Origin: Spirochaetia bacterium
GTDB taxonomy: Bacteria > Spirochaetota > Spirochaetia > SZUA-6 > Bin103
Length of the DNA: 64,000 bases
Reading direction: 5' to 3'
NCBI GenBank assembly: GCA_965198005.1
Contig: CBDAOI010000004.1
Span: 1,952,001 to 2,016,000 of the forward strand
A model generated the notes under the pieces. It was not told where the DNA came from, searched no databases, and saw nothing but the letters and a program-made list of their open reading frames with translations. The first letter of the stretch is position 1. Each line of letters starts with the position of its first letter. Position numbers and translations under genes: made by a program. Below, piece after piece: positions 1,298 through 38,269 of the stretch.

Positions 1298-3003
1298 GCG
1301 AAGTCGGACCTCCAGACCAGCGCCGCCGCCCGCGCCAGTCGCCGCTGGCGCTGCGCCACCAGCTCCGGCGTCCACTGTTCGGGCGCCAGCTCCGGAAGCT
1401 CGCGCGTGAGGGCGTACGTACTGCGGCCGTACGCGGCGAGCTTGGCGCCGTAGGACGAGTTGGCCACGGCCCGATTGGCGGATGCTTCCAGCAGCGTCAG
1501 GTTGCCGAGGCGATACGCGTCGCTGTCCCACAGTTCGGGCGCATAGGTCTCGGTCCAGCTCTCGCCAGGGTGTTCGGGCAGCACGTGCTCGATGGTGCCG
1601 GGGTCAGTGTCCGGATCGCAGGCGCGGCCGGCGACCTGGTGCTCGAGCCGTGCGAGAATGTACTTCACCAGCTTTCTGCGACGTCCTTTCGGGTCGAGTT
1701 CGAGCATGGAAAAGTCCTGCCGCATCTTCTCGTCGGCCACGTACACCGGTTTGAGGTACTCGAACACCGCCGCCGGGGTGGCCGCGGCGCCATCCGTCAC
1801 CGCTTTGGCGGCTCGATGGTAGACCGATTCCAGTGCGTTGGGATTGAGACCGCTCACGATGCCATACCGGAACGAGACCGCACTGACGAGCTTCAACACA
1901 CGAATGAAGTCGTCCCTGCTGAATTCCTCCCAGGCTGCGAACAGGAGCGGTATCGGCTGCCGCACGCGAAACAGACTCAGCTCGCTCACGTGCAGCTTGG
2001 CCCGCGGCAGCTCCACCCAGTAGCCGTGGTTCGGGTCGAGCACCGCAGCGAACAGCTCGGCCCTGCCTTCCAGCTCTTCAAGCAGAGCGAATACTTCGGC
2101 CGCCGTACGGGTTCGGTCACGCACCAGCTTGAACAGCCGCTGGGCACGGATCTTCGGCTCCCGGCAGAGCAGGTGGAAGCGGAGGAACTCCGGGAATCCA
2201 CCCTGGCCCACGGTCTCGACCAGTGATCGCCAGCGGCGCCGGAGGACGTCGAGGTCGGACGGGACGGATACGCGCGAGAACAGGTAGTTCTTGAGCAAGT
2301 CGGTGGTCGTCAGTTCGAGACCCCGCGCGTTGAGCGTCTCGAACACCGTGTACGCGTTCAACTCGTCGTCTACCGTGATCAGGATGAAGAGGAGCTGGCG
2401 GGCCACGGTCTCGGACAGCAGACCCGCCAGGGCACGCCCGTCGTTGCGTATTTCGCTCAGGCTTGGGAGCCGCGCGACGAAGTACTCGTAGCACTCCAGC
2501 AGCAACCGGTTCGAGTTCGGCAGCTTGCGGCGGTTGAGCGGACTCCTGAGCTGGATCAGATAATCCTGGTAGAAGGCGTTGTCCGTTTCATTCAGATGCA
2601 GCCGGCTGCTCTCCACCAGCGAGGCCGGGTCCTTTTCCCCGATGAAGCGTTTGCGCAGTTCCCGGCCGCGCTCCTGGTTGTCGCTGGCTTCGATGCCGTT
2701 TTCCGCCAGCCCGCCCAACCGGTGAATCACGGCGAGGGCGAGCAGGCTCAGAGTGGCGAGGCGCTGCTGGCCGTCGATGATCAGAAACTCGCGGTCGCTG
2801 GTGCCTTCGACGACCAGCGCACCGAGGTAGTGAGTCAATTCCGTATCCGAACGCAGGTAGACGACGTCGTTCCAGAGATCTTCCCACTGTTCCTCCGACC
2901 ACGAATAGTCGCGCTGGTAGGGCGGCACCCGGTATTGCTTGCCGTTGCCGATCAGCTCGAGGTAGTTGATGGTCCGCGTATTCAAGAGATTGGACTTGGC
3001 CAT
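1294..3003 (-). CDS. DUF262 + DUF1524 (HNH) protein, GmrSD-like type IV restriction candidate
   Basis: VPPYQRDYSW, IIDGQQRL and FETLNARG (DUF262); TIEHVLP...LGNLTLL..AN (DUF1524). Confidence 0.88.
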   Translation of the reverse strand: MAKSNLLNTRTINYLELIGNGKQYRVPPYQRDYSWSEEQWEDLWNDVVYLRSDTELTHYLGALVVEGTSDREFLIIDGQQRLATLSLLALAVIHRLGGLAENGIEASDNQERGRELRKRFIGEKDPASLVESSRLHLNETDNAFYQDYLIQLRSPLNRRKLPNSNRLLLECYEYFVARLPSLSEIRNDGRALAGLLSETVARQLLFILITVDDELNAYTVFETLNARGLELTTTDLLKNYLFSRVSVPSDLDVLRRRWRSLVETVGQGGFPEFLRFHLLCREPKIRAQRLFKLVRDRTRTAAEVFALLEELEGRAELFAAVLDPNHGYWVELPRAKLHVSELSLFRVRQPIPLLFAAWEEFSRDDFIRVLKLVSAVSFRYGIVSGLNPNALESVYHRAAKAVTDGAAATPAAVFEYLKPVYVADEKMRQDFSMLELDPKGRRRKLVKYILARLEHQVAGRACDPDTDPGTIEHVLPEHPGESWTETYAPELWDSDAYRLGNLTLLEASANRAVANSSYGAKLAAYGRSTYALTRELPELAPEQWTPELVAQRQRRLARAAALVWRSDFA

Positions 3004-3178
3004 GTGACCGCCGCCTGGCCCGCAACCTCGCTGCCGGATCGCGAGCAAGCCCGTCCGCCATACTGACGCCTCGGAGCTCCGTTGATCAATACCACCATCC
3101 TCCTCAAATCCTCCTCACGCCGACGATCCGGAGGACGTGGCGGCGCTGGCCCTCCTGGGGCTGCAACTGAGCTGGCCA

Positions 3179-4360
3179 TCAGCCGTGTTCCGCTCCTTCG
3201 AACAGACCCTGCTTCCAAAGCTCGCCAGGACGATCGCCCCGGTCGATCAACCGGCGCAGCAGGTCACGATCAGCAGCGCGCCGCACGGTGGCGAACCCAT
3301 TGCTCTTTTCCAGCCAGTAGATCTCTTCGAGACTCGCACCGTTCATGAACTCAGGCGAATGAGTGGACACGAACACCTGGCCGCCACGACGCGCATAGTC
3401 GCGAAACTCTTCCACCAGTTCACTCAGCAATCGTGGATAGAGCTGATTCTCCGGCTCCTCCACTGCCAGTACGGGATGCGGCTTCGGGTCGTGCAGCAGG
3501 ACCAGGTACGCGAACATCTTTATGGTGCCGTCAGACACGTAGCGGGCAATGAACGGATCCTGGAAGCTCCCGTCCTGGAACCGTAGCACAAGCCGTCCAT
3601 CTTCGGTAGCTTTGGCTTCTACTCGGGTGACTCCCGGTACCCGTTGGCCCATCACGTCCAGGATACGCTGAAATCGATCCGGATGCTGTTCAAACAGGTA
3701 TGCCGCGGCCTGGGCGACGTCGTCGCCGCGTGCCGACAGATGTTCCGAGAGTCCCGCGTCGCTGCTCTGACGGGCAGAGCTGATCTGAAAGTCGGAAATG
3801 TGCCAGTGCTCCAACAGCCCGCGGAACTCGGATACGACCGGAAACTCACGGAACTGACCGAGACCCTTGATCGCCAAGGTGCTCGGATCATCGAGGACGC
3901 GCTCCTCCCGCTCCTCCGTGGCACCCTCCTGACCGTAAGCGGCTTCATTGGTTATGGCGGTACCTCGGCCCCTGGAGAAATCAAGGAAGTGCCAAGGACG
4001 ACCAGCCCTACCATGTCTGCGTGTGTAGCGCAGGATTTCCCGACCGACGATCGGCCGTCCGTTACGGTTGGCTATCTCCAGCAGATAGGTCGCCAGGCGG
4101 CCGCCGCTTTCTCGAAATTTTATAGTGATCCCAACAGGTCCGGCCTCACCGCGACTGATCAGCTCTCGCAGGCCGCCGCGTCGTGCCACAGCCTGGGATA
4201 CGTTTTCCGTCAGACATTCCTTGAGAAAACTCAGCGCGTCGAAGAAGGTCGACTTGCCAGATCCGTTAGCACCAACGATAACGGTGAACGGTGGCAGCTT
4301 GTTCCATTTGGCGCGACGAAACAGCCGATAATTGCGCAATTCAAGATACTCGATTCGCAT
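3179..4360 (-). CDS. AAA_21/ABC-type ATPase (defence/TA-associated type)
   Basis: Walker A GANGSGKS, signature VSDGT, Walker B AVEEPENQL, switch STHSP. Confidence 0.88.
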   Translation of the reverse strand: MRIEYLELRNYRLFRRAKWNKLPPFTVIVGANGSGKSTFFDALSFLKECLTENVSQAVARRGGLRELISRGEAGPVGITIKFRESGGRLATYLLEIANRNGRPIVGREILRYTRRHGRAGRPWHFLDFSRGRGTAITNEAAYGQEGATEEREERVLDDPSTLAIKGLGQFREFPVVSEFRGLLEHWHISDFQISSARQSSDAGLSEHLSARGDDVAQAAAYLFEQHPDRFQRILDVMGQRVPGVTRVEAKATEDGRLVLRFQDGSFQDPFIARYVSDGTIKMFAYLVLLHDPKPHPVLAVEEPENQLYPRLLSELVEEFRDYARRGGQVFVSTHSPEFMNGASLEEIYWLEKSNGFATVRRAADRDLLRRLIDRGDRPGELWKQGLFEGAEHG

Positions 4361-8865: not shown

Positions 8866-9083
8866 GCCAATACGAGGGTACCACGGTCGTAGTTACGATG
8901 TCAATACACGACGGGTGAGGAGCGGTGAGGAGCACGCCTTCCATTAGGGACGATCTGTTCTGCCACGATCTCTTCTTTCAGATAGGTGAGGGCATAGCCG
9001 CGCAGATACGCCACTGGGCGAACAGGTCGCCTTCGATCACGTCCTGGAACAGAAACTCAGCACCGCGGAGCCGATCCGAAAAG

Positions 9084-9428
9084 TGGAGGTGGCGGGAATC
9101 GAACCCGCGTCCTGAGAGGTGCACCTGCGGCGTCTACAGGTTTAGCCGGCTGTTGTTTGCTTGGCGACGCCTTGGTGAGCCGACCAACCGGCGCCGGTGC
9201 AGCCCGCTGTTTGAGTTTCCCGCCGCACCCGCGAGCCGATGTGGCGGTGAGTTCTGAATTGCGTCGGGGTTGCTCGTCGCTCAGGACCGCACTTCAAGTC
9301 CCCGTGGCTACGTTATCAGGCAGCCAGTGCTAGATCTGTTTCGGCAGATCAAAAGTTCCAGGTTAAGGAGACTGGGCTCCACCTGCAGCCGCAAACATCA
9401 ATCTCTCAGTCGAAGCCAGGTCACCCCC
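9084..9428 (-). ncRNA. ssrA: tmRNA; tag reading frame (A)AETDLALAA** at 9345-9313
   Basis: 5' GGGGGTGACCTGGCTTCGAC; 3' T-arm GACGCGGGTTCGATTCCCGCCACCTCCA; internal frame ending LALAA-TGA-TAA; next to smpB. Confidence 0.95.
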
Positions 9429-14892: not shown

Positions 14893-16156
14893 CACCACCA
14901 CGACATCCTGCAGACCGCCATCGTCCACCCCGACAAGCGGCAGGTGCTGCCGTTGGCTCCCGGGTTCATTCACAACGCCGATGACTCTGGCGCCAAGAGC
15001 GCCAAACGCCGCAAGCAGGACTGTGAACTAAAAGCCGGCTACCGTGCCGTGCAGCGCATCCGTAACGACCATCCCCGGCTGGCTACGGTGATCGTCGCCG
15101 ATAGTCCGTGCTCCAAGCAACCGTTCATCGAACAGGTGCGCGCCGCCCGCTTCTCGTTTCTGCTGGTGGCCAAGCCGGAGGATCACACCAGCCTGTACCA
15201 GGATATCGACGGGCTGCGCCGCGGTCGGCTGCTGGACCACCGCTGCACCATCGACGCGACCGGGGACCGGCATGAATACGAGTGGGTTACCGGGGTGCCG
15301 CTGAACGGCAACCCCCGCAGTCCCCAGATCAACTTCGTGCACTACCGCATCGTACGGGCCGGCACGACCACCTATCAAAACGCCTGGGTGACCGACTTGG
15401 TGCCCACCGCTGGAAGCGTCGCGCGGATCGTGCGTGCGGGACGGGCACGCTGGAAGATCGAGAACGAGGGGTTCAATACGCTGAAGAACCAGGGCTATCA
15501 CCTGGAGCACAACTTCGGCCACGGTGACAAGTACCTGTCGGAGGCGTTCTTCCTACTCAACCTGCTGGCCTATTTCATGCACCAGATATTCGAGCTGGTG
15601 GACGGTCTGTATCAGCAGGTGCGGGCTGGGTTCGGGTCGCGCCGGGAGTTCTGGGGCGCGATCCGCGCCACGTTCCGGCTATTCCTGTTCCCGTCGTGGG
15701 ACCAGGTGCTGGTGCGGATGAACTCGCCGCCGCAGCCGCTGTCCGGGTAGCCGCTCCCTGGAGAACTGAACCTGCTCCCTGAACGATCCCTGACGAGGGC
15801 CGCGGCGCAGGTGTGCCGGCCGCGGCTGAGCACCGCCCCCGAAGGCCGATCGCCGCACCGCGCCAGCCCGCGGAATCGGCCGACCGGCGGTGGCTGACGG
15901 TGGTCAGGTCATCGCACCGGGCTGGCTTGACGGTGGCTAAATACATCACCTGCAATCAGTTACAGAATTTCTTCCGGGTCGGACCGTGCATTCACTCGGT
16001 GGGCCAACAGGTGGGCATGGTCGCGTTTCACACTCGGAGGGCTTGAGCTTATGACAGGGCTTGCGGTCTCGCCCTCAAGACTATTCTGCTGTAACCTTTC
16101 GGCCCCCAATGTTGCATTACTGTTTATGATGCTCTGCTGCTCCCCGAGAATTGCTG
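14893..16156 (+). mobile_element. ISNCY-type IS, 3' part (transposase C-terminal half to 15750 plus right end)
   Basis: HPDKRQVLPLAP.FI.N..KQDCE, GRARWKIENEGFNTLKNQGYHLEHNFGHG; terminal CCGAGAATTGCTG (16144-16156) is the inverse of CAGCAATTCTCGG at 23722. Confidence 0.8.
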
Positions 16157-16173
16157 AGCGCGGTGGGTCGCGC

Positions 16174-16203
16174 TTGACATGGATTCGGGCCGGCCTATAT
16201 ACT
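16174..16203 (+). promoter_or_regulatory. Sigma70-type promoter upstream of ABC cassette 1
   Basis: TTGACA-18 bp-TATACT; homologous to 49678-49707. Confidence 0.65.
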
Positions 16204-16609
16204 CGTCCGCGAATGGGAACTGACGCCATCCAGCCCAGCCGCCGGCTAGCGGTCACCCGACTTACCGACTTACCGACTTACCGCGCGCCGCTAGCGGCTC
16301 AGCCAACGCCCGGCAGCCAGCCGCGCGGCAGCCAGCCGCGCGGCAGCCAGCCGCGCGGCGCCGGTGCTGAGCGCGGCACCATTGATCCGTGTGGCGCACA
16401 GCCGCCACGCGTCCGTGCGTCCAACGGCCGACCTGTTGGCCCGCAAACTGATACCAGTCCACACCTGCATGCGTAGCGACGTGGCCGGAGCGAGAAGGGG
16501 CGCGGCTGTGCGCGACCATACTCGTGGGCCACAGATGCGCGCTAAGCCGTGGCAGCGGCTCGGCGATCGCCGGGCCACCGTTCTGTCAGAGGAACCTGTA
16601 GCTCAAGAG

Positions 16610-16818
16610 AGGAGGTGCAAAATGATACTCAAAGAGCCGCACGCGCGCGCGGCGTGAGCGGGGGGAACCCGCTGAGTCACACGCCGCGCGCTTTCAGTGT
16701 AATTGACTCAGACTGGCCGTCCGCGTTGCGGGCGCGCCCGCTGTTGCGGGCGTCAGAGTAGCCAGGGAGCGACAACTCGCTCCGCAATACTCTGGAGATA
16801 ACATTTAAGGAAGACACG
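16610..16818 (+). promoter_or_regulatory. Conserved structured leader, copy 1, with uORF MILKEPHARAA (16622-16657)
   Basis: AGGAGG RBS, uORF and hairpins conserved at 40296-40500 and 49948-50139. Confidence 0.7.
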
Positions 16819-18660
16819 ATGAAAAACTTTTTGACACTGACCTTCGCGGTTGCGTTGGTCCTGGTTGTGACCGCAACCGGCCTCTGGGCCGGCGGTGGCA
16901 CGGAAGAGGAGCCGCTAGCGGCGATGGAGAAGGAAATGGTGCGCGACCCAGCCACCGGCATGATGGTAACGGCACCAGAGTACGGCGGGACATTGACCAT
17001 GTCCAAGTCGGGTGGCTTTCCTCCGACTACTGACCCGTATTTTTCCGGGGGCTGGGCCGGCCACAGCCTGCTCCATGGTACTCTAGAGTTTCTAAGCATT
17101 GCCGACTGGGCAATAGATAGGGACCAATTGGACTGGTCAAGTTTTGCCGTTCCTCTATCTGGCTTAAGAGGGGCGCTGGCGGAAAGCTGGGATATTTCCG
17201 AGGACGGGCTCACCTATACCTTCAACATCCGCCAGGGCGTTTACTTCCACGATAAGCCACCGGTGAACGGTCGGGAGATGACTGCCAAGGATGTCGAATA
17301 TACCTTTCACCGCAATCTTGGAAATCGATTGACAGGGACCGAATTCTCCGAAGCCGAACCTACCCCCGACCTCCGTTGGCAGGGGTGGGATACGATGCCG
17401 ATCGAATCGATAACAGCAACGGACAAATGGACGGTTGTTTTTAAGCTGACGCGGCCAGACGCCCGTGCGCTGCGGGGTATCATCTCCCCTTCAGTTCACT
17501 TAATTGTTGCACGAGAGGTAATCGAGGAATACGGTGACATGAAGGATTGGAGGAACGTGGTCGGCACCGGACCCTGGATGCTGACTGACCTTGTCGAGGG
17601 CAGCTCTATGACCCTTACCAAGAATCCTAACTACTGGAGCGACGACGAAAAATACCCGGGGAACCGCTTGCCCTATGTTGACGAGTTCAGGGTTCTGGTT
17701 ATGCCAGAAGCGGCAACACGAATTGCGGCACTGCGGTCGGGTAAGATCGATTACGCCGGCGCCGCGCTCTCCTCTCCTGTCCTCGACAGTATCGACAAGG
17801 TGGAGAGCATGCAGCGGACCAACCCCGAAATCGTGATATGGGAGCATATAATACGGCAGAACTCTAGTTTTGGCATGAACACGCAGAGGGCGCCCTTTGA
17901 TGACATCCGGGTGCGCAAGGCTATGCAGATGGCACTGGACCTTGAGACACTGAACGAGACCTACTTCAAAGGGTGGGGAACGTGGGGACCTCAGGGACTG
18001 ATTGCCAACGATGTCCCACTGGCTGGCACCCCATTCGAAGAATGGCCCGACGAGGTCAAGAAAGGCTATAGGTATGACCCGGCAGGGGCGGAGGAGCTCC
18101 TTGATGAGGCGGGGTATCCGCGCGGGGCCGACGGCATCAGGTTCAAGGCCCATTTGGTCTGGTTTGACAAGCAAGATCCGAGCTTTATAGAATTACTAGC
18201 CGCTACGTACTACCGTGACATTGGCGTTGATGTAGAGATTGAGCTAGTGCCAGGTCCGGAATATAATCCTAGAAGGAAAGCTAGAGATTGGGACATGCTG
18301 ATGACCATAGCGGCCGACACGGGGTCGTCGCCGCCTTGGAACGCCATGGCTAGGTACAAGACTGGTGCTGATAATAACACCGCCAATGTGAACGATCCGG
18401 CTTATGACGCCATGTTGGCAGCCGCCGAAAAGGTAAGCACGGAAGAAGAGCAACTGCTTTTGGTGAAAGAGCTGAATATGTACGCAATAGAGAGGCACTG
18501 GACCGTATTTGCTGGTAATGTAATACCGTCGACGACCGTGACCCAGCCGTGGGTCAAAGGTTATAACGGAGAATTGAAACTGGGAGGTAACCATTTTGAA
18601 TATACCATCGCCGCCCGCCTCTGGATCGACCAGGAGCTGAAGGAGTCGATGGGATTCTGA
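16819..18660 (+). CDS. ABC transporter substrate-binding protein, family 5 (Opp/Dpp/Nik type)
   Basis: Signal peptide, PEYGG, LAESW, FNIRQGV.FH, VGTGP, DIRVRKAMQMALD, LDEAGYP. Confidence 0.92.
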   Translation: MKNFLTLTFAVALVLVVTATGLWAGGGTEEEPLAAMEKEMVRDPATGMMVTAPEYGGTLTMSKSGGFPPTTDPYFSGGWAGHSLLHGTLEFLSIADWAIDRDQLDWSSFAVPLSGLRGALAESWDISEDGLTYTFNIRQGVYFHDKPPVNGREMTAKDVEYTFHRNLGNRLTGTEFSEAEPTPDLRWQGWDTMPIESITATDKWTVVFKLTRPDARALRGIISPSVHLIVAREVIEEYGDMKDWRNVVGTGPWMLTDLVEGSSMTLTKNPNYWSDDEKYPGNRLPYVDEFRVLVMPEAATRIAALRSGKIDYAGAALSSPVLDSIDKVESMQRTNPEIVIWEHIIRQNSSFGMNTQRAPFDDIRVRKAMQMALDLETLNETYFKGWGTWGPQGLIANDVPLAGTPFEEWPDEVKKGYRYDPAGAEELLDEAGYPRGADGIRFKAHLVWFDKQDPSFIELLAATYYRDIGVDVEIELVPGPEYNPRRKARDWDMLMTIAADTGSSPPWNAMARYKTGADNNTANVNDPAYDAMLAAAEKVSTEEEQLLLVKELNMYAIERHWTVFAGNVIPSTTVTQPWVKGYNGELKLGGNHFEYTIAARLWIDQELKESMGF

Positions 18661-18662
18661 CG

Positions 18663-18841
18663 CAACGCCTGCGGCGTTGACTGAATCAATCGCCCTACGG
18701 GCGATTGAAACGGGAGTCGCTGCGCGACTCCACGAGCGAGTTCGCCGTAGGCGACTTAGCGTTTTCGCGGTCGTTCTGGCTGCATAGAAGGGCGCCGGGA
18801 GGCGCCGGGAGGCGCCGGGAAGCCCGAGGCTTCCCGGCGCC
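18663..18841. repeat. Cluster of short palindromic hairpins (REP/BIME-like) between SBP and permease
   Basis: CAACGCC-TGC-GGCGTTG, TCAATCGCCC-TAC-GGGCGATTGA, GGAGTCGC-TGC-GCGACTCC (imperfect centre), then (GGCGCCGGGA)x3 followed by its inverse. Confidence 0.6.
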
Positions 18842-18857
18842 CATTTACCACGAAGAT

Positions 18858-19865
18858 ATGAGAGCGTACATCATCAGGCGTTTCTTGCTGGCAATCCCCA
18901 CCCTGTTTATATTGAGCATCCTGGTCTTTCTCTCGGTCCGCTTCCTCCCCGGCGATGTAATAGACGCAATGGCGAATAGGATGCAGTCCGAGGGCCTGGC
19001 CATCGAGATTGACCGTGAAGCTTTTGAGCGTATGCTGGGATTAGACGTGCCTGTGTACGTGCAGTATGGACGCTGGATAGGAGTGTTGCCGACCCCTGAC
19101 TGGTTTACCGGTGAGTCCCACTTTAAAGGTCTCCTGCACGGCACCCTTGGCGAATCATGGATGTTTGGCGGTTTTTCGATAGAGGAGAGGATACTCGGTA
19201 GATTGCCGCTAACCATTCAGCTTGGTGTCATGGCAATCGTAATCGGGCTCGTCATAGCGCTGCCGGTCGGCATCTACTCGGCGATTCGCCAGGATACGGC
19301 TGCCGACTACGCGGGGCGCACCATCGCCATCATCGGCCTGGCCACGCCCAACTTCTGGTTGGCCCTGATGGTCATGATCTACCCGGCAATCTGGTGGGGC
19401 TGGACGCCACCGATGGAGTGGGTTCCTTTCACCGAAGACCCGCTGGGGAATCTCGGGGTGCTCATCATACCCGCCGTGATTCTGGGGACGGCCATGGCTG
19501 CAGGCACAATGCGGTTGACACGCACCATGATGCTGGGGGTGCTCAGGCAAGACTATATCAGGACTGCCTGGTCAAAGGGCCTCAGTGAGAGGGTTGTCGT
19601 GGTGAGACACGCCACAAGGAATGCCCTCATCCCGGTGGTTACGTTGATGGGCATGCAGTTGCCTCTGCTGGTAGGTGGCTCCGTTATCATGGAGAACATA
19701 TTTAACCTGCCCGGCTTAGGTCGTCTCTTTCTGACTTCACTCGAAGGCAGAGATTACCCTGTGGTCTCCGCAGTAAACCTGGTTTTCGCTACGGTTGTTG
19801 TGGGGGCGAATCTCATCATCGACCTGACCTATCCCTACCTCGACCCGAGGGTCCGTTATGAGTGA
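18858..19865 (+). CDS. ABC permease, OppB/DppB type
   Basis: YIIRR, PGD, TPNFW, QDYIRTAWSKGL, LDPRVR. Confidence 0.92.
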   Translation: MRAYIIRRFLLAIPTLFILSILVFLSVRFLPGDVIDAMANRMQSEGLAIEIDREAFERMLGLDVPVYVQYGRWIGVLPTPDWFTGESHFKGLLHGTLGESWMFGGFSIEERILGRLPLTIQLGVMAIVIGLVIALPVGIYSAIRQDTAADYAGRTIAIIGLATPNFWLALMVMIYPAIWWGWTPPMEWVPFTEDPLGNLGVLIIPAVILGTAMAAGTMRLTRTMMLGVLRQDYIRTAWSKGLSERVVVVRHATRNALIPVVTLMGMQLPLLVGGSVIMENIFNLPGLGRLFLTSLEGRDYPVVSAVNLVFATVVVGANLIIDLTYPYLDPRVRYE

Positions 19866-20772
19866 AGCCACAGGGGTATCATCATCAGTAATTGCGCCGA
19901 AGAGACGTACCGGGCTGGCTGATTTCTTCATCAGACTGTGGAGAGAGAAGCCACTGGGTACGATCAGCGGGATTATCATATTGCTGTTTATCTTTGTTGG
20001 TATCTTCGCCGATGTTCTGGCTCCCTATCCGTATGATGAGCCACACATACGTGACATGATGAAAGGCCCGTCAGCCCAGTATCTCCTCGGTACGGACCAG
20101 TTGGGGCGAGACTCATTGAGCCGCATCATCCACGGGACTCGTACTTCGTTGCTCGTCGGTCTGGCCACGACCGCTCTTGGTGTCGTGATCAGCACCCTGA
20201 TCGGCGGCACTTCGGGGTTCCTGGGTGGCAAATTGGACCTGGGTGTGCAGAGATTTGTCGACGCCTGGATGTCTTTCCCGGGACTGCTCCTGTTGTTGAC
20301 GATCATGTCTATCGTTGGGCGGGGTGTGCCACAGATAATACTGGTGCTGGGGATAGCAGGAGGCATCGGCGGCTCGAGAGTGTTGAGAGGCGCCGTTATC
20401 GACATCAAAGAGAATGTGTATTTCGAGGCGGCAGAGGCGATCGGCAGCTCAAAATGGAGAGCATTTATCCGACATGTCGTCCCCAATATCATGCCTGTCA
20501 TAGTCATCGGATTCAGCATCAACATCGGAGGCGTAATCCTGAGTATTGCATCTCTGGGCTTCCTCGGATACGGCCTGCCGTTCACGATTCCTGAGTGGGG
20601 AGGTCTGCTCAGCCGGGAAGGGCGTGAGTTCATGGAGATAGCGCCACGGCTGGCTCTCTGGCCCGGTCTTGCCCTGACTATTACCGTTTACTGTCTCAAC
20701 ATGTTCGGCGATGCGATGCGCGACCTGCTCGACCCGCGGCTGCGGGGCGGTGGCGGGCGGCCGGGTGCCTAA
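19858..20772 (+). CDS. ABC permease, OppC/DppC type
   Basis: LGTDQLGRD, EAAEAIG, HVVPN, GFLG.G, WG, GDAMRDLLDPR. Confidence 0.92.
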   Translation: MSEATGVSSSVIAPKRRTGLADFFIRLWREKPLGTISGIIILLFIFVGIFADVLAPYPYDEPHIRDMMKGPSAQYLLGTDQLGRDSLSRIIHGTRTSLLVGLATTALGVVISTLIGGTSGFLGGKLDLGVQRFVDAWMSFPGLLLLLTIMSIVGRGVPQIILVLGIAGGIGGSRVLRGAVIDIKENVYFEAAEAIGSSKWRAFIRHVVPNIMPVIVIGFSINIGGVILSIASLGFLGYGLPFTIPEWGGLLSREGREFMEIAPRLALWPGLALTITVYCLNMFGDAMRDLLDPRLRGGGGRPGA

Positions 20773-20804
20773 CCACACACACTCGATACCAAGGAACACT
20801 GAAA

Positions 20805-22900
20805 TTGCCTAGCTAGCTAGCTACAGCTACATCACGTCACTCGATACGAAGGAGGACGCCCTCGAGGTCGTCGGCGGCAAGGGCCGCTCTTTGGCCAAGT
20901 TGGCGAACGCCGGCTTCCCGGTGCCTGGCGGGTTTCAGGTAACCACCGCGGCGTATCGCAGCTTTGTCGCCGACCACGAGCTGCAGGCACGCATCGTTGC
21001 GTTGGCCAGGCCGGCGGTCGTCGATGGAAGAGCCTCGTTTGAGCAGTCGTCGGCCGCCATCGGGCAGTTGTTTGCCGACACCGAGATCTCGGCCGAGATC
21101 AGTGCCGAAATTGGCGACTGGTATGGCGCCCTGGCGGGCGGCACCCTGGAGGGCGAACCCGCGTTGGCGGTGCGCTCGTCGGCGAACGCCGAAGACCTGC
21201 CGGGTCTCTCCTTCGCCGGCCAGCAGGAGACGTTTCTCAACGTCACCGGCGCCGAGGCCGTGGTGGCTGCCGTCAAGAACTGCTGGGCCTCGCTATGGAC
21301 CGCGCAGGCCATCAGTTACCGGCACCAGAACGGCATCGCCCAGGACTCCGTGGCCATGGCCGTGGTCGCCCAGATCATGGTGCCCTCAGAGGTGTCGGGC
21401 AATGACCTGGCGTTGATGGTCGCGGATTTGTCGGAGGTGGAGCGACAGGCCTTTCGCGCATTCGAGGCCGCGCAGCATCTCGACGATCTGGCGCTGCAGG
21501 TGACGATGCCGGAGAGCGAGAGCCCCGTTTTTCTGGGAAAGACAAAGACAGGCCTCAACGACCGGATAGTGGACGAATGGCGCGCGGTCACTCGACCGCG
21601 ATTGATTGCGGTGAAGGAAGAATGGGCCGAGCTGGACCTGGATTCGGCGACGGATGAGCAACTGCTGGCAGCTATTCGCGAGATGAGTATGGAAGAAGGT
21701 TATTGCTGGGCCAGTAACTCGTACATCTCCTTCGCGACCTCCAAGTTCCCCGACGAACAGCTGCAGCATTTTCTCCGTGAAACGTTGCCGAACCACAACT
21801 TCACCAGCGGTCAACTCCTGTCCGGCATCGAGTCGAAGACCATGCAGGCCAACGAGGATCTGTTCGAAATCGCCAAGCTGGTTCGAGCGAGCGACGAGCT
21901 TACCTACCTGGTGATCGTGACGCCCGGTGAATTCCTGATGGATGAGCTGCGCGAGCACCCTGCTGCCGGCAAAGTGGTGGCGGGGATCGAGCAATACCTG
22001 GCGACCTACGGGCATCAGGGGTACTCCTTGGACTTCGTCGATCCGACCCAGGCGGAGGACCCGGCGGCCCTGTTCGCCACGCTGAAAGCGATGGTCGGCG
22101 ACCAGGACTACGACCCTGAGCATCAGCGCGCCAAGGCGGCAGCTATCCGCGAGGAGAAACTCGAGCAGATCTCGGAGCTGCTGAGCGGCCTGGAGTACTG
22201 GCAGTTTCGCTACCGCCTGTGGCTGGCCAGAAGGTACGCTCCGGTCCGCGACCAAGTCTCCTTCCTGTTGGGCTCCTGCTGGTCGCTAGTGCGCCCCATG
22301 GCGCTCGAACTGGGCCGTCGCCTGGTGGAAGTGGGCACCTTCTTGGAGGCCGAAGACACCTTCTACCTGGTCACCGACGAGTTGAACCAGGCGCTAGAGG
22401 CGCGCAAGTCGGGCAAGGCGTTACCGCAATTGGGTGCGTTGGCGGCCGAGCGACGCGAGCTGCGCGAGGCACGCAAGAAGCATCGCGCGCCGGCAGTCGT
22501 TCCCGAAGAGGCCAGGGCCAACAAGTACATTGCCCAGGCAGAGTCAATGGCAGCGCAGATCAACAACGACGAGTCCAGCGCTACCATGCGCGGTTTCGCC
22601 GTCAGTTCCGGTCAGGTGACCGCCAAGGCCAGCGTGGTGATGGGCCCGGCGGACTTCGCCAAGATGGAGCCGGGATCGATCCTGGTCTCGCCGTTGACCA
22701 CGCCGGCCTGGACGCAGCTGTTTGCCCATGCCGCCGGTCTGGTCACCGATATGGGCAGCATCCTTGCGCACGGATCGATCGTCGCTCGGGAATATGGCAT
22801 CCCCGCGGTCCTGGGGGTCGGCAACGGCACCGAGCGCATCGCGCACGCTCAGCTGATCACCATCGACGGCGACGCCGGCACGGTAGCGATCCACGACTAA
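20805..22900 (+). pseudogene. PEP-utilising enzyme (PEP synthase/rifamycin phosphotransferase-like architecture), apparently disrupted
   Basis: VGGKG.SL, AVRSSA.AED...SFAGQQET, swivel His domain GSILAHGSIVAREYGIPAV; ATP-grasp appears to stop abruptly after QIMVPSEVSG; likely TTG start out of frame across a (TAGC)3 tract. Confidence 0.7.
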
Positions 22901-24151: not shown

Positions 24152-25159
24152 TCACAGCGTTCGCAAGAACGCCATCAGACCGGTGTCCTCCCGCCACGGT
24201 TTGGTCGCTTGCGGTTCGGTCGCGTCGCACAGAGCGATTGCCTTGGCCTTCGTCTCAAGGTCGATTTCGACGTAGACATTCGTTGTGTCCAGCTTGGCGT
24301 GGCCGAGCCATGCCCGAATCGTGTTGAGGTCCACGCCGGCACGCAGCAGGTGAGTCGCCGTGGTGTGGCGAATCACGTGCGGGCTGACGCGCTTGCCGAC
24401 CAGCGACGATACCCGGGCTGAGGCGACGGTCGCGCAGCGACCGACCAAGCGGCCGATGCCGAAGCGGGTGATCGGTTGTCCGTGCCGGTTGAGGAAGACC
24501 TGCTCCGCGGCAGGGCGCCCATCGACCAAAGCTGGCAGCAGGCGCGCCGTGCGCGGCCAGAGCGGGCACTGACGGACCTTGCCGCCCTTTCCGCGTACCG
24601 TTGCCAGAGAAGGATGCGACTCGGGGACGGTCAGTTGTAGATCGCCGACCGTGAGTTGCGCGGCCTCGGACGCCCGGACGCCGGTGTTGTAGAGGAACAG
24701 CAGCAGGGCACGCTCGCGGCGGCCCTGCCGCGTGCCGTGGTCGGGAGCGTCGAGTAAGGCGTCGATCTCGGACTTCTCCAGATAGGAGATCGGCTTGGGG
24801 GCCGCCTTCTTGCGGGGCAGAGCACGGATCTGCGTGCACCATTCGACGTGCTCGGGACTGCGGCTGCCGACGAAGCGGGCAAACGAACAGATGGCCGTGA
24901 GCCGCTGATTGCGGGTCTGCGGGGAGCAGCCCCGCGCATCTTCAAGATGTGCGAGGAACTGCAGCACACGCTCGGAGGTGAGATCGAAGACGGCCAGCCG
25001 GTCGACCGGTTTGCGCCGCGCGCGGCTGACGAAGGGGAGCAGCAAAACCAGCGTGTCACGGTAGCTGCGTTGAGTGTTGCGGGCCAGATTACGCTCACTC
25101 ACCAGATGCTCCGCGAGGAAGCGTCGCAGCCAAGGGCCCAGAGTACGGGTATCAGTCAT
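24152..25159 (-). CDS. Tyrosine recombinase, RitC-like
   Basis: FL..HL..ERNL..NT..SYRD, TGVRASE, GKGGKVR, PHVIRHT, WLGH, TNVY. Confidence 0.88.
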   Translation of the reverse strand: MTDTRTLGPWLRRFLAEHLVSERNLARNTQRSYRDTLVLLLPFVSRARRKPVDRLAVFDLTSERVLQFLAHLEDARGCSPQTRNQRLTAICSFARFVGSRSPEHVEWCTQIRALPRKKAAPKPISYLEKSEIDALLDAPDHGTRQGRRERALLLFLYNTGVRASEAAQLTVGDLQLTVPESHPSLATVRGKGGKVRQCPLWPRTARLLPALVDGRPAAEQVFLNRHGQPITRFGIGRLVGRCATVASARVSSLVGKRVSPHVIRHTTATHLLRAGVDLNTIRAWLGHAKLDTTNVYVEIDLETKAKAIALCDATEPQATKPWREDTGLMAFLRTL

Positions 25160-25409
25160 CGCGGCCTCCGGTTGCGGTCTCTGCGTAGCGCTCGAAGCGG
25201 AGCGAAGCCGCGCGCAGCAACTCAGGGGTCATGCTGAGATAGACAGCGGTTCCTGCGATGTTGACGTGGCCCAGGTAGGTGGAGAGGAATGGCAGCAAGC
25301 GTTGCACGTCCTTCCCTTGGCGGTACCAGGAGGTCAGTCGATGGACGGCGAACGAATGTCGCAGGTCGTGCAGGCGCGGCTGACGGCGGGCTCCGACCGG
25401 GTTCCGCAC
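25152..25409 (-). pseudogene. RitB-like tyrosine recombinase, C-terminal fragment
   Basis: PRLHDLRHSFAVHRL.SWYRQG.DV...LSTYLGH...T.VYL..TPELL. Confidence 0.85.
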
Positions 25410-25423
25410 TCCAGCCGCTTGGC

Positions 25424-26079
25424 GCTTTCAGCGCCTGCCCTACTCACGGCGCGAGCTGTTCGAGCAGATCGAGCGGCACACCCTGAAGCCGTTGCCTCGG
25501 CACCACTTCCCGCTGCAGCAGATCCGGGAAGTGACGGTCCAGTTCAACTATCATGTGGAGCTGCGCGAAGACCGGCACTACTACAGCGTGCCCTGGCACC
25601 TGCGCACCCGCGATCCGCGCACCAAGGTCAAGCTGCTCTACGACGAGCGCACCGTCTCGATCCACTACGACAACGTGCGCCTGGTCGAGTACCAGCGCGA
25701 TCGTCGTGCGGGTGGCTACACCACGCTGCCCGACCACATGCCGCCGCAGCACCGGTGGTATGCCGAGTGGAGCCCGGAACGATTTCTGCGCTGGGGGCGG
25801 GCGCTGGGCCGCAACGTGGAGGCCGTGATCGCAAAGGTGCTCAAGGACGCCAAGTACCCGCCCCAGGGGTTTCGTGCCTGCCTGGGCATCCTGAACCTGG
25901 AGAAGAGCTATGGCGCACCGCGCCTCGATCGGGCCTGCCAGCGGGCGCTTGTCTACGGACTGTGCTCGTACCGCCGGATTCAGAACATGCTGAAGCTGGG
26001 CCTGGAGGAGGAGCACGACCAACCGCAGCTGAACTTCCCCCGCCATGACAACGTGCGCGGCAGCCACTACTACAACTGA
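25424..26079 (+). pseudogene. istA: IS21 transposase, C-terminal fragment
   Basis: RFQRLPYSRRELF, VQFNYH.ELREDRHYYSVPW, H.NVRG..YY; homologous to 59811-61373. Confidence 0.85.
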
Positions 26080-26089
26080 GGTACCGACG

Positions 26090-26851
26090 ATGACCAATAA
26101 CCAAGCCACCCTGCACAAGCTCGACCAGATGCGCCTGCACGGCATGGCACGAGCGCTACGCACCACCCTGGAGAGCTCAGCCCAGTGGACCGCCGACGAG
26201 CTGCTGGCGCACCTGGTGGATGCCGAGTGGGACGACCGACATGCGCGGCGCCTGCAGCGGCTGCTGAAGGCGGCCCACTTTCGCTACCTGGCCGCCATCG
26301 AGGAAGTAGACTTCGCGCTGAGCCGCAACCTCGACAAGAACCAATTGCTGCGGTTGGCCGACTGCCGCTGGGTGCAGCACCACCAGGACCTCATCATCAC
26401 CGGCAAATGCGGTTCGGGAAAAAGCTATCTGGCCTCCGCGCTGGGCCACCAAGCGTGTCTGCGCGGCTTCCGGGTCGGCTACTACGCGGCCGCGCGGCTG
26501 TTCGGAGAACTCCGCCTGGCCAAGGCTGACGGCAGCTACGTCCGGGAGCTGGAGAAGATCAAGAAGCAGGCATTGGTGGTCATCGATGACTTCGCGCTGG
26601 AGCCGCTGGACGGACTGGCGCGTCTGGCACTGCTGGAGATGCTCGAAGATCGCCACGGTCGAGCCTCGACCCTGATGGTGTCGCAGTTGCCGGTGTCGTC
26701 CTGGCATGAGGTAATCGGCGAGCCCACCATCGCCGACGCGATCTGTGATCGCATCGTGCACGGCGCCCACCGCATCAACCTCGAAGGAGAATCCGTCCGG
26801 AAGCTGTATGCCCAACGTGCCGACCGTGACTCAGCCGAGCGGCTGGGCTAG
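26090..26851 (+). CDS. istB: IS21 helper ATPase
   Basis: GKCGSGKS, VVIDDF, EDRH, SQLP, ADAICDR, GES.R. Confidence 0.92.
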   Translation: MTNNQATLHKLDQMRLHGMARALRTTLESSAQWTADELLAHLVDAEWDDRHARRLQRLLKAAHFRYLAAIEEVDFALSRNLDKNQLLRLADCRWVQHHQDLIITGKCGSGKSYLASALGHQACLRGFRVGYYAAARLFGELRLAKADGSYVRELEKIKKQALVVIDDFALEPLDGLARLALLEMLEDRHGRASTLMVSQLPVSSWHEVIGEPTIADAICDRIVHGAHRINLEGESVRKLYAQRADRDSAERLG

Positions 26852-29664: not shown

Positions 29665-31842
29665 TCAGGTCGCCGCGCCCGCAGCGGCAGGTTGGGCCTT
29701 GATCCTGGCAGTCAGATCCTCGGGGCTGAGGATCGTGGTGAGGAAATCGAGGTCGCTGTAGTGTGCCGACAGCCGGTACTGATTGGCAAGACCACTGCGC
29801 GCCTTGATGAGCTGGATGTACTCGTAGTCGGCGAGGGTGCGGAAGTTGTTGCGGACCTGGGCGAACGACCACGAGGTATAGGTACGGATCTGGCTGCGCT
29901 GAAAGACCACCTGCTCGGCAACGACGCCCTCCGCATCGGCTTTGTCGGTGACGTACTTCTTGATGAGCTCCAGCAACTCTCTGGCCGGCCGTGGCAGGTC
30001 ATCGAGGGTGTTGTCCAGCACGCCGTCGGAGAGCAGCTCGTGAGCGAGCCGGTAGTCGGCGACGGTGCACTCGATGTATTCGAGGGTCTCGCCGCCGTCC
30101 AACGTCAGCTGCTTGCGCTTGCGCTGGTACTGATACAGGAAGCAGATGGCGTTGATGAGCCGCAGGAACTTCTCATGGTCGCGCCGGGTCTTCAGTGTGG
30201 AGGCCGGGAAGGTCAACACCGGCTCGAGCAACCGCTGCGCGAAGTGGTGGCGCTCGGTGATTCGATCCAGACTCCGTCGCTCGAGGAAGCCGTCGACGGT
30301 GTAGTTGGTGCGCTGCCGGTCGTGGATGAGCCGGGTCTGGTCCTCTGACTCGTCGATGCCCACGACGAAGCTGCGGCTGAGGTTGTCGGGGTTCACGTCG
30401 CCTTTGGTGGTGGTCTCGGCCAGCGAGATCGGCCCGTTCACGGTGATGGTCTCGGTCTTCACTTGGGCGGTGACCGGGTCCTTCATCGGCACCGCCTTGG
30501 TGATGGAGCGCCGCGAGATGAGCTCGCGCAGCGGGTAGTCGGAGCCCTCGCTGCCGTGCTTCTCGCCGATGACGATGAAGCAGTGCTTCAGGTCGTCCTT
30601 GCCGTAGTAGTAGAGCGCCTGCGCCGACAAGTCGCTGACGCTCTCCACATCCTCGGGCGGACACAGCTGCTCGGTCACCTCCACCAGCATGCTCTTGCCG
30701 GCGCTGCTGCGCGAGATGATGATCGCATGCAGCGGGTTGTGCATCAGGCGCGAGGTCATCACCAGGTAGAGCAGGAGCTTGTTCTTGCGCTCCCGGACGT
30801 AGCCAAGCTCGGTGTAGTCGCGGTCGATCTGGTCGACCAGGTCGGAGCTCTTCAGCAACTCCATCGCGATCTGCCGTTGATGGTCGGTCAGCGCGCGGTG
30901 CTTCTCGATCACGTCGATGATCTGGGTCAGGTCGCTCTCGATCTGCGCTTGGTCGCTCAAGCCGAAGCGGTCCATCAGCTGATAGGTGAAGTTCTGTCGG
31001 TCGCGGTTGCGGTACAGGTCGATGGAATCCACGAATGCGCTCTGGTCGAGCTGGGCCTTGATGTTGGCCTTCATGCGGGTGGTGTGCTCAGCGAAGCTGC
31101 CGATGACCCGGTAGGTCACCTGTGGGAACCGAAACAGGAAGCCGCCCTCGATCTCGGTCACCGCATCTGAGATGGACGCCTCACCACCGTCGCGGTCCAG
31201 GAGTCGCTGGAGTGAGGCGCGCACCTCAGAGCTGGGCAAACCGTCGAGCTCGATGGGCACGCGACGCGCCGAGACCCCGGCGCGCGTGAGATCGGCGAAC
31301 AAACGCGCGCGTCCCTCGAAGGTGAAGGTGACAGCGCGGATGCGCTGGTCCTGTGCGAACTTCAGGTACTTGGCGTCGCTGCCGAACGGGAACGTCGTAT
31401 GCGGAAAGTCATGCTGGATGAGCGTGAGCGCGTCGAGGGCGCTCTCGACGAAGATCACCTCCCTCTGCTTGCTCAAGAAGGGGGCGTTGAAGATGCCATC
31501 CTCGCCAATCATGACCAGGGGCCGCTTGGCGCGCCGGTTCAGTTTGTATCCGACGACGTTGACGACCGTCCCTGCCTCATCGAGGACCGGAATCGTCACG
31601 CAGCCCTGCAGCACGACGCGGCCGTTCTTGATGGCGCCGCAACGCTCCAGCTCTATGCGCAGCTCCTGGTCGCGCGCCAGATGCTCGGCGACCTGGTCGG
31701 CGCAGTAGCCGAGCCGGAAGCTCTCGAATACGAACGACTCAGTGATACCGGCTCGTGCGAGCGCGGCACGTGGGCGGGGATCCGAGGCCAGCGGTTCCGT
31801 GCAGAGGCCGGTCAGCTGTTCGAGTGCGTTGGCTTGATTCAT
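29665..31842 (-). CDS. Primase-like (DnaG-N/TOPRIM-like) + P-loop ATPase replication protein, copy A
   Basis: FRLGY, IPVLD..G.VVN..G, VIFVESALDALT; Walker A-like SRSSAGKS, V.GP...ETTT, DES..QT..IH.RQR. Confidence 0.75.
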   Translation of the reverse strand: MNQANALEQLTGLCTEPLASDPRPRAALARAGITESFVFESFRLGYCADQVAEHLARDQELRIELERCGAIKNGRVVLQGCVTIPVLDEAGTVVNVVGYKLNRRAKRPLVMIGEDGIFNAPFLSKQREVIFVESALDALTLIQHDFPHTTFPFGSDAKYLKFAQDQRIRAVTFTFEGRARLFADLTRAGVSARRVPIELDGLPSSEVRASLQRLLDRDGGEASISDAVTEIEGGFLFRFPQVTYRVIGSFAEHTTRMKANIKAQLDQSAFVDSIDLYRNRDRQNFTYQLMDRFGLSDQAQIESDLTQIIDVIEKHRALTDHQRQIAMELLKSSDLVDQIDRDYTELGYVRERKNKLLLYLVMTSRLMHNPLHAIIISRSSAGKSMLVEVTEQLCPPEDVESVSDLSAQALYYYGKDDLKHCFIVIGEKHGSEGSDYPLRELISRRSITKAVPMKDPVTAQVKTETITVNGPISLAETTTKGDVNPDNLSRSFVVGIDESEDQTRLIHDRQRTNYTVDGFLERRSLDRITERHHFAQRLLEPVLTFPASTLKTRRDHEKFLRLINAICFLYQYQRKRKQLTLDGGETLEYIECTVADYRLAHELLSDGVLDNTLDDLPRPARELLELIKKYVTDKADAEGVVAEQVVFQRSQIRTYTSWSFAQVRNNFRTLADYEYIQLIKARSGLANQYRLSAHYSDLDFLTTILSPEDLTARIKAQPAAAGAAT

Positions 31843-34716: not shown

Positions 34717-34756
34717 GCGGTTGAGACGCCAGCCGCGATGATTGCTGAGGTGAGGC

Positions 34757-36463: not shown

Positions 36464-36486
36464 GGGCTTCCCTCATTGCTTTTGCC

Positions 36487-37488: not shown

Positions 37489-37514
37489 GTGATACACCTG
37501 ATTGCGATTCCCCC

Positions 37515-38230: not shown

Positions 38231-38269
38231 TCCCTCCCAAGTGTCTCTCAGGCAGTCATCAATGACTAT

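Follow-up and report, generated by a model that had tools for sequence, protein, structure and literature searches.

Leaders with a conserved mini-ORF, a GC-rich stem and a probable pseudoknot precede an expanded family of transporter operons in uncultured Spirochaetia

In a 64,000-nt stretch of DNA from an uncultured Spirochaetia bacterium (contig CBDAOI010000004.1; the whole stretch is referred to below as the window), three copies of a 200-nt leader lie directly 5' of three genes for substrate-binding proteins (SBPs) of ATP-binding cassette (ABC) transporters. The copies are designated A, B and C by position. There is good support for reading this leader as the conserved core of a longer 5' leader that belongs to one massively expanded Opp/Dpp-type SBP operon family, and equally good support for three modules within it, i.e., a Shine-Dalgarno (SD) sequence with a translated mini-ORF (upstream open reading frame, uORF), a 12-bp GC stem (P1) with the sequence UGAGUCA, and an H-type pseudoknot. 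The leader is a real, new and lineage-specific family, and its mode of action can be proposed in outline. The best explanation, which we hold with somewhat less than even confidence, is that occupancy of the mini-ORF by ribosomes is relayed through P1 to the pseudoknot domain of the long leader.

By sequence reading and domain search, the three copies were found at 16610-16818 (+), 40296-40500 (-) and 49948-50139 (+), exactly where the original prediction, made from the sequence alone, had placed them. The ATG codons of the SBP genes follow immediately, at 16819, 40295 and 50140, respectively. The products of all three genes were assigned to SBP_bac_5 with E values of 1e-58 to 1e-72 (for gene A, at 16819-18660 (+), PF00496 with E 1.3e-72), and two Opp-type permease genes follow each SBP gene; no named NCBIfam equivalog cut-off was reached by the SBPs. 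By tblastn, the window holds these three loci of the SBP family and no others. The three leader copies share a mean column identity of 81%, and the sequence 5' of the uORF SD is unalignable. The predicted fold of copy A was more stable than those of 200 out of 200 dinucleotide shuffles (z = -5.1).

The transporter sets behind copies A (16819-22900) and B (35513-40295) consist of an SBP and two permease genes, with no ABC ATPase gene after them; their ATPases may be shared and encoded elsewhere. A gene for a PPDK_N/PEP-utilizers protein (20891-22900) comes after the transporter set of copy A. The SBP of copy B is 652 amino acids long, as compared with about 600 for its paralogs, and its gene contains a perfect tandem duplication (168 nt x2, 38525-38861). 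A second perfect tandem duplication (208 nt x2) lies at 34300-34717 of the window. Both of these 100% identical duplications are either very recent events or assembly artefacts.

The window's own genome (G000; 4.89 Mb in 4 contigs) carries many further copies. A BLAST-type search of this genome yielded 125 candidates, 40 of which were scored, with 43 matches; a fuzzy uORF pattern returned 77 copies, and nhmmer found 74 full and 11 partial ones. A covariance model (R1), built from 48 type A leaders, i.e., those with the MILKEPHARAA uORF and P1, yielded 86 matches. An ORF of at least 150 amino acids lies downstream of 75 of the 77 pattern-defined copies, and 72 of those 75 ORFs encode paralogs of the window SBPs. 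The statement that all three SBP genes are preceded by the leader was correct within the window but does not extend to the family genome-wide, since tblastn identified 146 full-length loci in G000, 76 with a type A leader and 70 without.

The leader turned up only in a small number of uncultured genomes, all from the same genus. Of the 11 genomes in this genus, 8, with G000 among them, contained R1 matches (86, 63, 43, 35, 33, 5, 1 and 1, about 270 in all), none being found in G002, G009 and G010; in the sister genus, R1 matched in 0 of 13 genomes. A second covariance model (R2), built only from the sister leader types described below, matched in 5 of 61 genomes of the order, all five within the genus (about 140 type B/C matches are known), and gave no match in 55 genomes of the order outside it. 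An exact-pattern scan of one genome per species returned 37 stretches, which came from three metagenome-assembled genome (MAG) records titled Spirochaetia bacterium and one Acidobacteriota-labelled contig. The latter MAG contig (L182; JAPPFQ010000701.1, 4,047 nt) has one exact leader match and may be mis-binned. With SBP matches counted at E <=1e-30, the number was 127 in the congener G001, 6 in each of the leaderless congeners G009 and G010 (best identity 43-44%), and 1 in each of two sister-genus genomes. In G009 and G010, a short plain leader precedes the nearest SBP homologue, and a promoter-like site lies about 50 nt 5' of the SD of that gene. Leader family and SBP expansion co-occur in the genomes checked.

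We then considered the uORF. Its SD (AGGAGGTG/T) lies 4-5 nt before the reading frame ATG ATA CT(C/G) AAA GA(G/A) CCG CAC GCG CGC GCG GCG TGA, i.e., MILKEPHARAA. In copy A, the SD occupies 16610-16617 (+), where conservation in the profile first exceeds 90%, and the uORF 16622-16657 (+); copy B has its SD at 40500-40493 (-) and its uORF at 40489-40454 (-), and the uORF of copy C lies at 49960-49995 (+). The uORFs of the three copies differ only by CTC/CTG and GAG/GAA, in agreement with the prediction that all differences are synonymous. A larger comparison was made on copies from G000 and its congeners, of which 171 were found, 129 were unique and 124 could be parsed. A canonical start codon was present in 119 of these 124 (ATG 112, GTG 4, TTG 3), and an SD-like sequence preceded the uORF in 116. 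Over codons 2-6, the mean minor-allele frequency was 0.139 at third positions, as compared with 0.013 at first and 0.010 at second ones, and the common variants were synonymous (CTC/CTG, GAA/GAG, CCG/CCC/CCT/CCA). This three-base periodicity fits a coding constraint and not one acting on RNA only, so that MILKEP is probably translated, and made and selected as a peptide. Frameshifts and nonsynonymous drift were not seen overall in the further copies, in which synonymous third-position change dominates codons 2-6.

The second half of the uORF behaves differently. Codon 7 varies freely (CAC, TAC, TAG, TGG, GAG, TTG), and the occurrence of its TAG form in several genomes indicates that the shorter product MILKEP is tolerated. 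The stop lies at codon 12 in 95 of the 124 unique copies, at codon 7 in 18, and later or not within 15 codons in 11. The C-terminal half, HARAA, is without constraint as a peptide; this remainder of the uORF, GCGCGCGCGGCGTGA, is an arm of P1 and is constrained as RNA. Amongst the divergent copies, one from the congener G007 keeps the frame through a 6-nt deletion, and another is frameshifted. No tandem regulatory codons are present in MILKEPHARAA.

As had been predicted, a long stem, of 12 bp (GCGCGCGGCGTG/CACGCCGCGCGC), has the stop codon TGA in its 5' arm, and both TGAGTCA and its complement TGACTCA were confirmed in all three window copies. P1 of copy A, as given by RNAalifold, spans 16645-16691 (+), with its 5' arm at 16645-16656, which holds the TG of the stop, and its 3' arm at 16680-16691. 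Enclosed between these arms are the variable hairpin P2 (16658-16672) and, in the internal loop of P1, the invariant TGAGTCA (16673-16679), while TGACTCA follows at 16704-16710. The corresponding positions in copy B (-) are 40466-40455 and 40430-40419 for the P1 arms, 40437-40431 for TGAGTCA and 40408-40402 for TGACTCA; in copy C (+) they are 49983-49994 and 50019-50030, 50012-50018, and 50043-50049.

To characterize the type A structure, we aligned 48 sequences, whose RNAalifold prediction contains P1, a CTGGC/GCCAG helix around an inner hairpin, and the GGAGCG hairpin. When two crossing helices were included, 96.0% of 2277 cells held standard pairs, as against 27-54% when the partners were slid by 1-3 columns. 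By element, the paired share was 99.1% for P1, 99.6% for S1 (CTGGC/GCCAG), 95.8% for S2 (the crossing GAGTA/TACTC helix), 94.9% for P4 (the GGAGCG hairpin) and 94.9% for TGAGTCA/TGACTCA. Variation in P1 consists of wobble changes only, and P2 is missing, or about 22 nt larger, in some copies. The core GAGTC/GACTC is invariant, with a few co-changes of end pairs (T to C with A to G). The TGAGTCA:TGACTCA pairing may be either a tertiary (pseudoknot) contact or a hairpin that forms once P1 melts. As a mimic of a ribosome, the uORF region of 56 copies was forced single-stranded in nearest-neighbour folding without pseudoknots; with this region blocked, UGAGUCA pairs with UGACUCA in the predicted fold. 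The type A leaders are so uniform that they alone cannot prove the fold.

Beyond TGACTCA, the order of elements in the three copies is CTGG(C/T), one or two GC hairpins, (C/G)AGAGTA-GCCAG, GGAGCGR-CAAN-YCGCTCC, GCAA-TACTC and the gene start. In copy A, the proposed H-type pseudoknot domain extends over 16713-16794 (+), on the basis of pairing counts and covariation across leader types. Its helix S1 pairs CTGGC (16713-16717) with GCCAG (16761-16765), loop L1 (16718-16753) contains two GC hairpins, S2 pairs CAGAGTA (16754-16760) with TACTCTG (16788-16794), and P4, a hairpin in loop L3, reads GGAGCGA-CAAC-TCGCTCC (16766-16783) and is followed by GCAA. In copy B (-), S1 lies at 40399-40395 with 40350-40346, S2 at 40357-40351 with 40323-40317 and P4 at 40345-40328; in copy C (+), which by alignment lacks one of the two L1 hairpins, S1 lies at 50052-50056 with 50082-50086, S2 at 50075-50081 with 50109-50115 and P4 at 50087-50104. 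The GGAGCG..CGCTCC hairpin was confirmed as described originally, with a constant stem and a varying loop. The SD of the SBP gene starts 7-15 nt after the 3' strand of S2, outside the pseudoknot; SD and start codon lie at 16807-16821 (+) in copy A (AAGGAAG and ATG), and the SD of copy C is GGAG at 50130-50133 (+). The start-site region varies as a module, with one class folding as CAUACG-GAGAAA-CGUAUG and a variant CAUAGG..CCUAUG.

An informative signal on the fold came only with the paralogs that have no type A leader. The upstream regions of these 70 genes include clusters of 23 and 17, and a motif search found a related domain at 35 of the 70; these leaders constitute the sister types B and C. 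We analyzed 34 of them, the 35th being an identical copy. They contain, in order, S1a CCCUCGC, a loop of 5-45 nt often with the hairpin CCUGCGAUUGCAGG, S2a GAGAGYR, a single G, S1b GCGAGGG, about 17 nt with GGCAGUG, and S2b YRCUCUC. This order matches CUGGC ... AGAGUA-GCCAG ... UACUCU of type A, and the arrangement 5'-S1a-L1-S2a-L2-S1b-L3-S2b-3' is that of an H-type pseudoknot. R2 weakly matches the 3' halves of type A leaders (e.g., G000:C4:586715-586827, E 3.4e-4) and, with such weak type A matches included, gave 54 matches in G000 and 53 in G001. Examples of the sister types are loci L093-L126 of G000 (e.g., G000:C2:725635-725994 and C4:700568-700927), none of which falls in the window. Type A, with MILKEPHARAA and P1, is a distinct subtype and is more numerous than the sister types.

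Compensatory changes are plentiful amongst the sister leaders. In 33 distinct sequences, the S2 column pair 100-132 is UA in 20 and CG in 8, and the pair 101-131 is AU in 14 and GC in 8; over four helices, these sequences hold 24 double-change cells as compared with 10.9 +/- 2.4 after shuffling, a value reached by 0 of 500 shuffles. When 13 type A and 32 type B/C sequences were combined, 5 of the 7 S2 pairs showed double changes, again with 24 such cells (6.7 +/- 2.0 in shuffles, 0 of 500 reaching), and 89.2% of cells were paired as compared with 26-65% when slid. For S1, a perfect 7-nt complement occurs within 72 nt upstream in 30 of the 34 sister leaders, as compared with 11.7% of shuffles. 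The S1 pair types are CCCTCGC/GCGAGGG (17), CCTTCGC/GCGAAGG (3) and CCCTCGT or TCCTCGT with ACGAGGG (2), together with G-U intermediates, and the step from type A CUGGC/GCCAG to type B/C CUCGC/GCGAG is an exchange of G-C for C-G. The original prediction had offered CTGG(C/T)/GCCAG and GAGTA/TACTC over GAGTAGCCAG as alternative pairings. Both pairings are present, and the GAGTA/TACTC helix displays the covariation across leader types that had been sought in further copies, but the sister types retain both with compensatory changes, which speaks against their being alternatives. Most likely, the two are stems of a single H-type pseudoknot, and we infer from their joint conservation that S1 and S2 form simultaneously. 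A pairing of S2a with UACUC inside the uORF was set aside; it is weakened by the 24% of unique copies that vary at the third position of codon 3 (mostly CTG).

A sigma-70-like promoter candidate, TTGACA-18-TATACT at 16174-16203 (+), lies about 420 nt 5' of the copy A uORF, with 11 of 12 consensus matches and one site found against 0.2 expected. Of 74 copies, 46 have a similar site no more than 900 nt upstream, as compared with 0 of 74 on the opposite strand; the median distance between site and conserved leader is 435 nt. Judged from these sites, the 5' leader is perhaps about 0.6 kb long, and the stretch studied here would be its 3' third. Between promoter candidate and uORF lie a short ORF-like start and short tandem repeats; copy A has CCGACTTA x3.4 and a 15-mer x3.5 at 16257-16283 and 16307-16359, and copy C has CCGACTA x4.3 at 49746-49775. 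A conserved ATGGG(A/C)AC(T/C)GAC start comes just before the short perfect repeats; any ORF running through units of 7 and 8 nt would have its frame shifted, and the short repeats upstream of the uORF appear C-rich. Larger tandem arrays occur at 40839-41396, 5' of copy B, and at 48693-49748, 5' of copy C, with 2-4 copies of 111-138-nt units at 80-92% identity. Each array unit has a TTGAC-type promoter-like site and an ATGATGA(A/C)GCGCC motif, i.e., the arrays are stacked promoter-like modules.

Conservation exceeds 90% from the uORF SD onward, over the whole leader and also over the first ~170 nt of the SBP gene, i.e., the part for the signal peptide and N-terminus; beyond this it drops to 30-60%. 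Amongst 56 paralogs (1540 pairs), leader nucleotide identity had a median of 0.857 (5-95%: 0.787-0.933) and the SBP bodies a median amino acid identity of 0.471, with a Spearman correlation of 0.14 between the two. For 8 of 27 copies from other genomes, the SBP body was 90-99% identical to that of a G000 paralog. The leaders of 4 of these copies were only 76-80% identical to the leader of that same paralog, which ranked 15th-47th of 56, and reached 83-93% identity to some other G000 leader. Six such cross-genome pairs were then compared window by window, and their bodies agreed at 93-100% from about +300 to +400 onward. Five of these pairs had a leader of 65-80% identity and unrelated upstream sequence, and the sixth pair was similar from -300. 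This mismatch of bodies and leaders indicates that leaders have been exchanged among loci, and the leader together with the first ~170 nt forms a conserved 5' cassette swapped among paralogs.

Some further observations concern the same block and its genes. An approximate consensus query, which gives a lead only, suggests that 28 of the 70 paralogs without a type A leader keep the signal-peptide block. At L082, L032, L035 and L086, SBP bodies are 93-100% identical in DNA to G000 paralogs across species-level genomes, and at L091 (G001:C1:820000-839999) the cross-species identity extends to the operon behind the SBP. A housekeeping comparison with one gene, missing from two of five genomes, gave a sole value of 83% nucleotide identity, to G003. 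Recent exchange of transporter operons between species and contigs shared between bins are both possible.

We propose that the three modules act in sequence. A ribosome translating or pausing on the mini-ORF would melt P1. Peptidyl-prolyl-tRNA is expected to be slow in reacting with either the next residue or a release factor, and termination works poorly in a Glu-Pro-stop context; a pause at Pro6 (codon 6) may prolong occupancy of the mini-ORF. Whether P1 is closed or open would set the UGAGUCA:UGACUCA contact, which lies two bases from S1, and the state of this contact could be conveyed to the pseudoknot domain, passing on the translational or amino-acid state of the cell. The pseudoknot domain might then set the output of the leader, i.e., read-through, mRNA lifetime or 30S loading at the adjacent start site. 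The inferred parts of this scheme are the proline pause, the coupling of P1 to the pseudoknot, and the regulatory outcome. With about 80 operons sharing the cassette, the leader would answer one common signal and not the individual substrates; since the 80-odd SBPs are only about 47% identical, a shared substrate-specific sensor is unlikely and a global signal more plausible. A bolder version, to which we give a low probability, is a regulon-wide RNA switch of a new class, in which a nascent-peptide or proline-pause sensor is coupled to a new pseudoknot aptamer or operator, serving more than 100 ABC-transporter operons, with the cassette doubling as a homology block.

Several findings weigh against relay from the mini-ORF through P1. 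Covariation is nearly lacking within type A, in which changes were mostly wobble and 3 pairs had double changes as compared with 1.7 expected from shuffles, so that the support for P1, for P2 and for the UGAGUCA contact comes only from conservation and folding energy. The exchange of leaders means that their high identity is in part due to concerted evolution and overstates selection per base; codon periodicity and compensatory pairs are independent of this caveat. The most divergent copy, a single one from G008, is without SD, ATG and TGA but has GAUACUCAAAGAACC, and this retention hints at an RNA-level role of the stretch. An SD-preceded mini-ORF lies upstream of the pseudoknot in 27 of the 34 sister leaders by a filter used without a control, and the peptides differ between leader types: MxPKTGYD* (9), MKSPYD*, MQN*/MRN*, (V/M)K(L/P)* and bare start-stop pairs (M*). 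The common design would accordingly be a ribosome-loading mini-ORF followed by a pseudoknot, with no specific peptide, which argues against a peptide sensor. In the constrained folding, the mean unpaired probability of the SBP start site was 0.50 when free and 0.51 with the uORF blocked, and among 56 copies blocking made the start site more open in 7 and less open in 3. Finally, no terminator-like site was found in 16000-16900, and among 48 copies the 6 nt after P1 include 2-3 T in 32 and at least 4 T in 9.

Two specific mechanisms were rejected. An ermC-like unmasking of the SBP start was given up because constrained folding, in a pseudoknot-free model that would miss a tertiary link, showed no effect. 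An intrinsic-terminator attenuator was ruled against, there being no terminator-like site and no conserved U-tract after P1; P1 is not a canonical terminator. The original prediction of a translation-coupled attenuator or ligand-sensing leader was supported in part; a classical attenuator is not supported, and folding sees no link between ribosome occupancy of the uORF and the openness of the start site.

Rather than relaying a signal from the mini-ORF, the pseudoknot may itself be the sensor, either as a new riboswitch aptamer that binds a global metabolite or second messenger, or as an operator recognized by an RNA-binding protein or a small RNA (sRNA) in control of the whole SBP regulon, with the mini-ORF merely keeping the long leader translated and shielded from Rho or nucleases. 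We consider this unlikely. Pseudoknot aptamers (preQ1-II, SAM-II) and operators (rpsO) exist, and the sRNA GcvB co-regulates many SBP mRNAs. Covarying stems and conserved loops lie directly 5' of the start in all three leader types, GGCAGUG in L3 is nearly invariant in types B and C, and the pseudoknot, which matches no known family, is common to types whose peptides differ. On the other hand, L1 and L3 differ greatly between types, the SD 7-15 nt downstream lies outside the pseudoknot, unlike in the pseudoknot riboswitches just named, and a distribution confined to one genus is unusual for a metabolite riboswitch. No ligand, protein or sRNA partner was identified (no sRNA was sought).

A second alternative dispenses with switching altogether. 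The leader might be a constitutive expression and export cassette, in which a ribosome-loading mini-ORF, stable structures and a signal peptide provide new paralogs with mRNA stability, protection from Rho and secretion, and recombination keeps the copies uniform. The unbroken conservation from the uORF SD through the signal peptide would be expected of such a cassette, as would the swapping of leaders between paralogs (4 of the 8 near-identical bodies, with leader ranks of 15th-47th of 56). The promoter candidates about 435 nt upstream, the failure to find a terminator or a predicted occlusion of the start, and the short plain leader of the SBP homologue in G009 and G010, which lack the expansion, point the same way. 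We nevertheless find this reading doubtful, as peptide-level constraint on MILKEP and compensatory upkeep of two stems exceed the needs of a generic stabilizer, and the UGAGUCA/UGACUCA arrangement is left unexplained.

The cassette might also act mainly as DNA, with the 5' block serving as a homology site at which upstream regions and SBP bodies are shuffled among about 150 loci and the RNA features being secondary. Pairs with bodies 93-100% and leaders 65-80% identical and with unrelated upstream sequence (5 of 6) are in keeping with such a role, and the window is rich in integrases and insertion sequence (IS) elements. Homology alone explains neither the codon periodicity nor the compensatory pairs, however, and the borders of the block yielded neither a recombinase site nor inverted repeats; we regard this as highly improbable. 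A mobile repeat, of the kind of miniature inverted-repeat transposable elements (MITEs), or a chance repeat unrelated to genes is effectively refuted: high copy number in a genome rich in mobile elements would suit it, but orientation and distance to the SBP start are fixed in 72 of 75 cases, similarity runs on into the coding sequence, and no terminal inverted repeats or target duplications were seen.

Elsewhere in the window, a full-length tmRNA gene lies at 9081-9428 (-; 134.7 bits) and a group II intron domain (D1-D4) at 57546-57723 (+; 51.1 bits). Mobile DNA is dense, occupying 24152-26851, 43347-46672, 55437-57020 and 58310-61637, with genes for two tyrosine recombinases, IS21-type IstB ATPases, an IS66 transposase and a Mu-type transposase. 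Two large ORFs that resemble each other and match no Pfam family (29665-31842 and 44429-46672) are located in segments repeated at an offset of about 14.8 kb. At 1294-4360, a gene for a GmrSD-type restriction endonuclease adjoins one for an AAA_21 (AbiEii-like) ATPase, and this is probably a defence locus.

If it functions as proposed, the leader would be among the most repeated cis-regulatory leaders in one bacterial genome, with about 80 type A copies, and about 130 with the sister types, on 146 paralogous transporter genes. It would offer a natural experiment in which a leader peptide, a stop-holding stem and a covarying pseudoknot are combined and spread by recombination as the family expands. 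It is a candidate orphan RNA class with defined stems and, if the proposal is true, a concrete case of a newly expanded transporter family kept under common control.

Finally, we compared the leader with known RNA families and systems. A search of the whole window against Rfam 15 at gathering scores returned only the tmRNA and the group II intron domain; at E <=10, the interval 16500-16900 gave 5 weak matches of 13-17.5 bits, as compared with gathering scores of 35-61, and four sister-type leaders gave 0 matches at E <=1. The original remark that the leader was not recognized as a known riboswitch agrees with this check. A limited literature search, too narrow for the leader to be called unpublished, returned nothing on such leaders. 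As in the preQ1-II, SAM-II and SAM-V riboswitches and the rpsO operator, a compact two-stem pseudoknot with covarying stems appears to lie just 5' of the start; unlike in those, the SD here is outside the pseudoknot and hairpins occupy both loops, and there is no Rfam match to pseudoknot riboswitches, these included if Rfam 15 holds them. In the GcvB regulon of enterobacteria, many mRNAs for periplasmic binding proteins come under one control through a shared 5' untranslated element. The sharing here is similar, but GcvB targets are short C/A-rich stretches and not a 200-nt structured leader with a uORF. The leader is also no STAB-SD stabilizer, in which an SD-like sequence close to the 5' end binds ribosomes but starts no ORF; here a start codon follows the SD in 119 of 124 copies, the frame shows codon periodicity and the SD lies about 435 nt from the promoter candidates.

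Amongst uORF-dependent systems, attenuation of the trp, his or pyrBI type involves a terminator and a run of regulatory codons, neither of which was found here. The ermC and cat leaders have, like this one, a leader ORF with its own SD whose 3' part is a hairpin arm, so that a ribosome on the ORF reshapes the fold; they differ in that no alternative pairing masking the downstream SD or start was found here, and that the gene starts about 160 nt after the uORF stop. The testable defining features of the systems compared, i.e., terminator, start masking, SD within the pseudoknot or an Rfam match, were not found, and the leader is a member of none of them. By analogy, it appears most like the uORF-plus-structure leaders of mgtA/mgtCBR (mgtL, mgtP and mgtM of Salmonella) and E. 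coli tna (tnaC), to which it has no sequence or Rfam relation and from which it differs by being repeated before about 80-130 operons in one genome. In those leaders, translation of a very short proline-containing ORF decides the fold of the RNA and the fate of the transcript. The translated uORF within a long leader that typifies them has its counterpart here in the coding signature and the promoter candidates, and just as the Salmonella transporter leaders join a uORF to a second structured sensor, the second module here would be the H-type pseudoknot.

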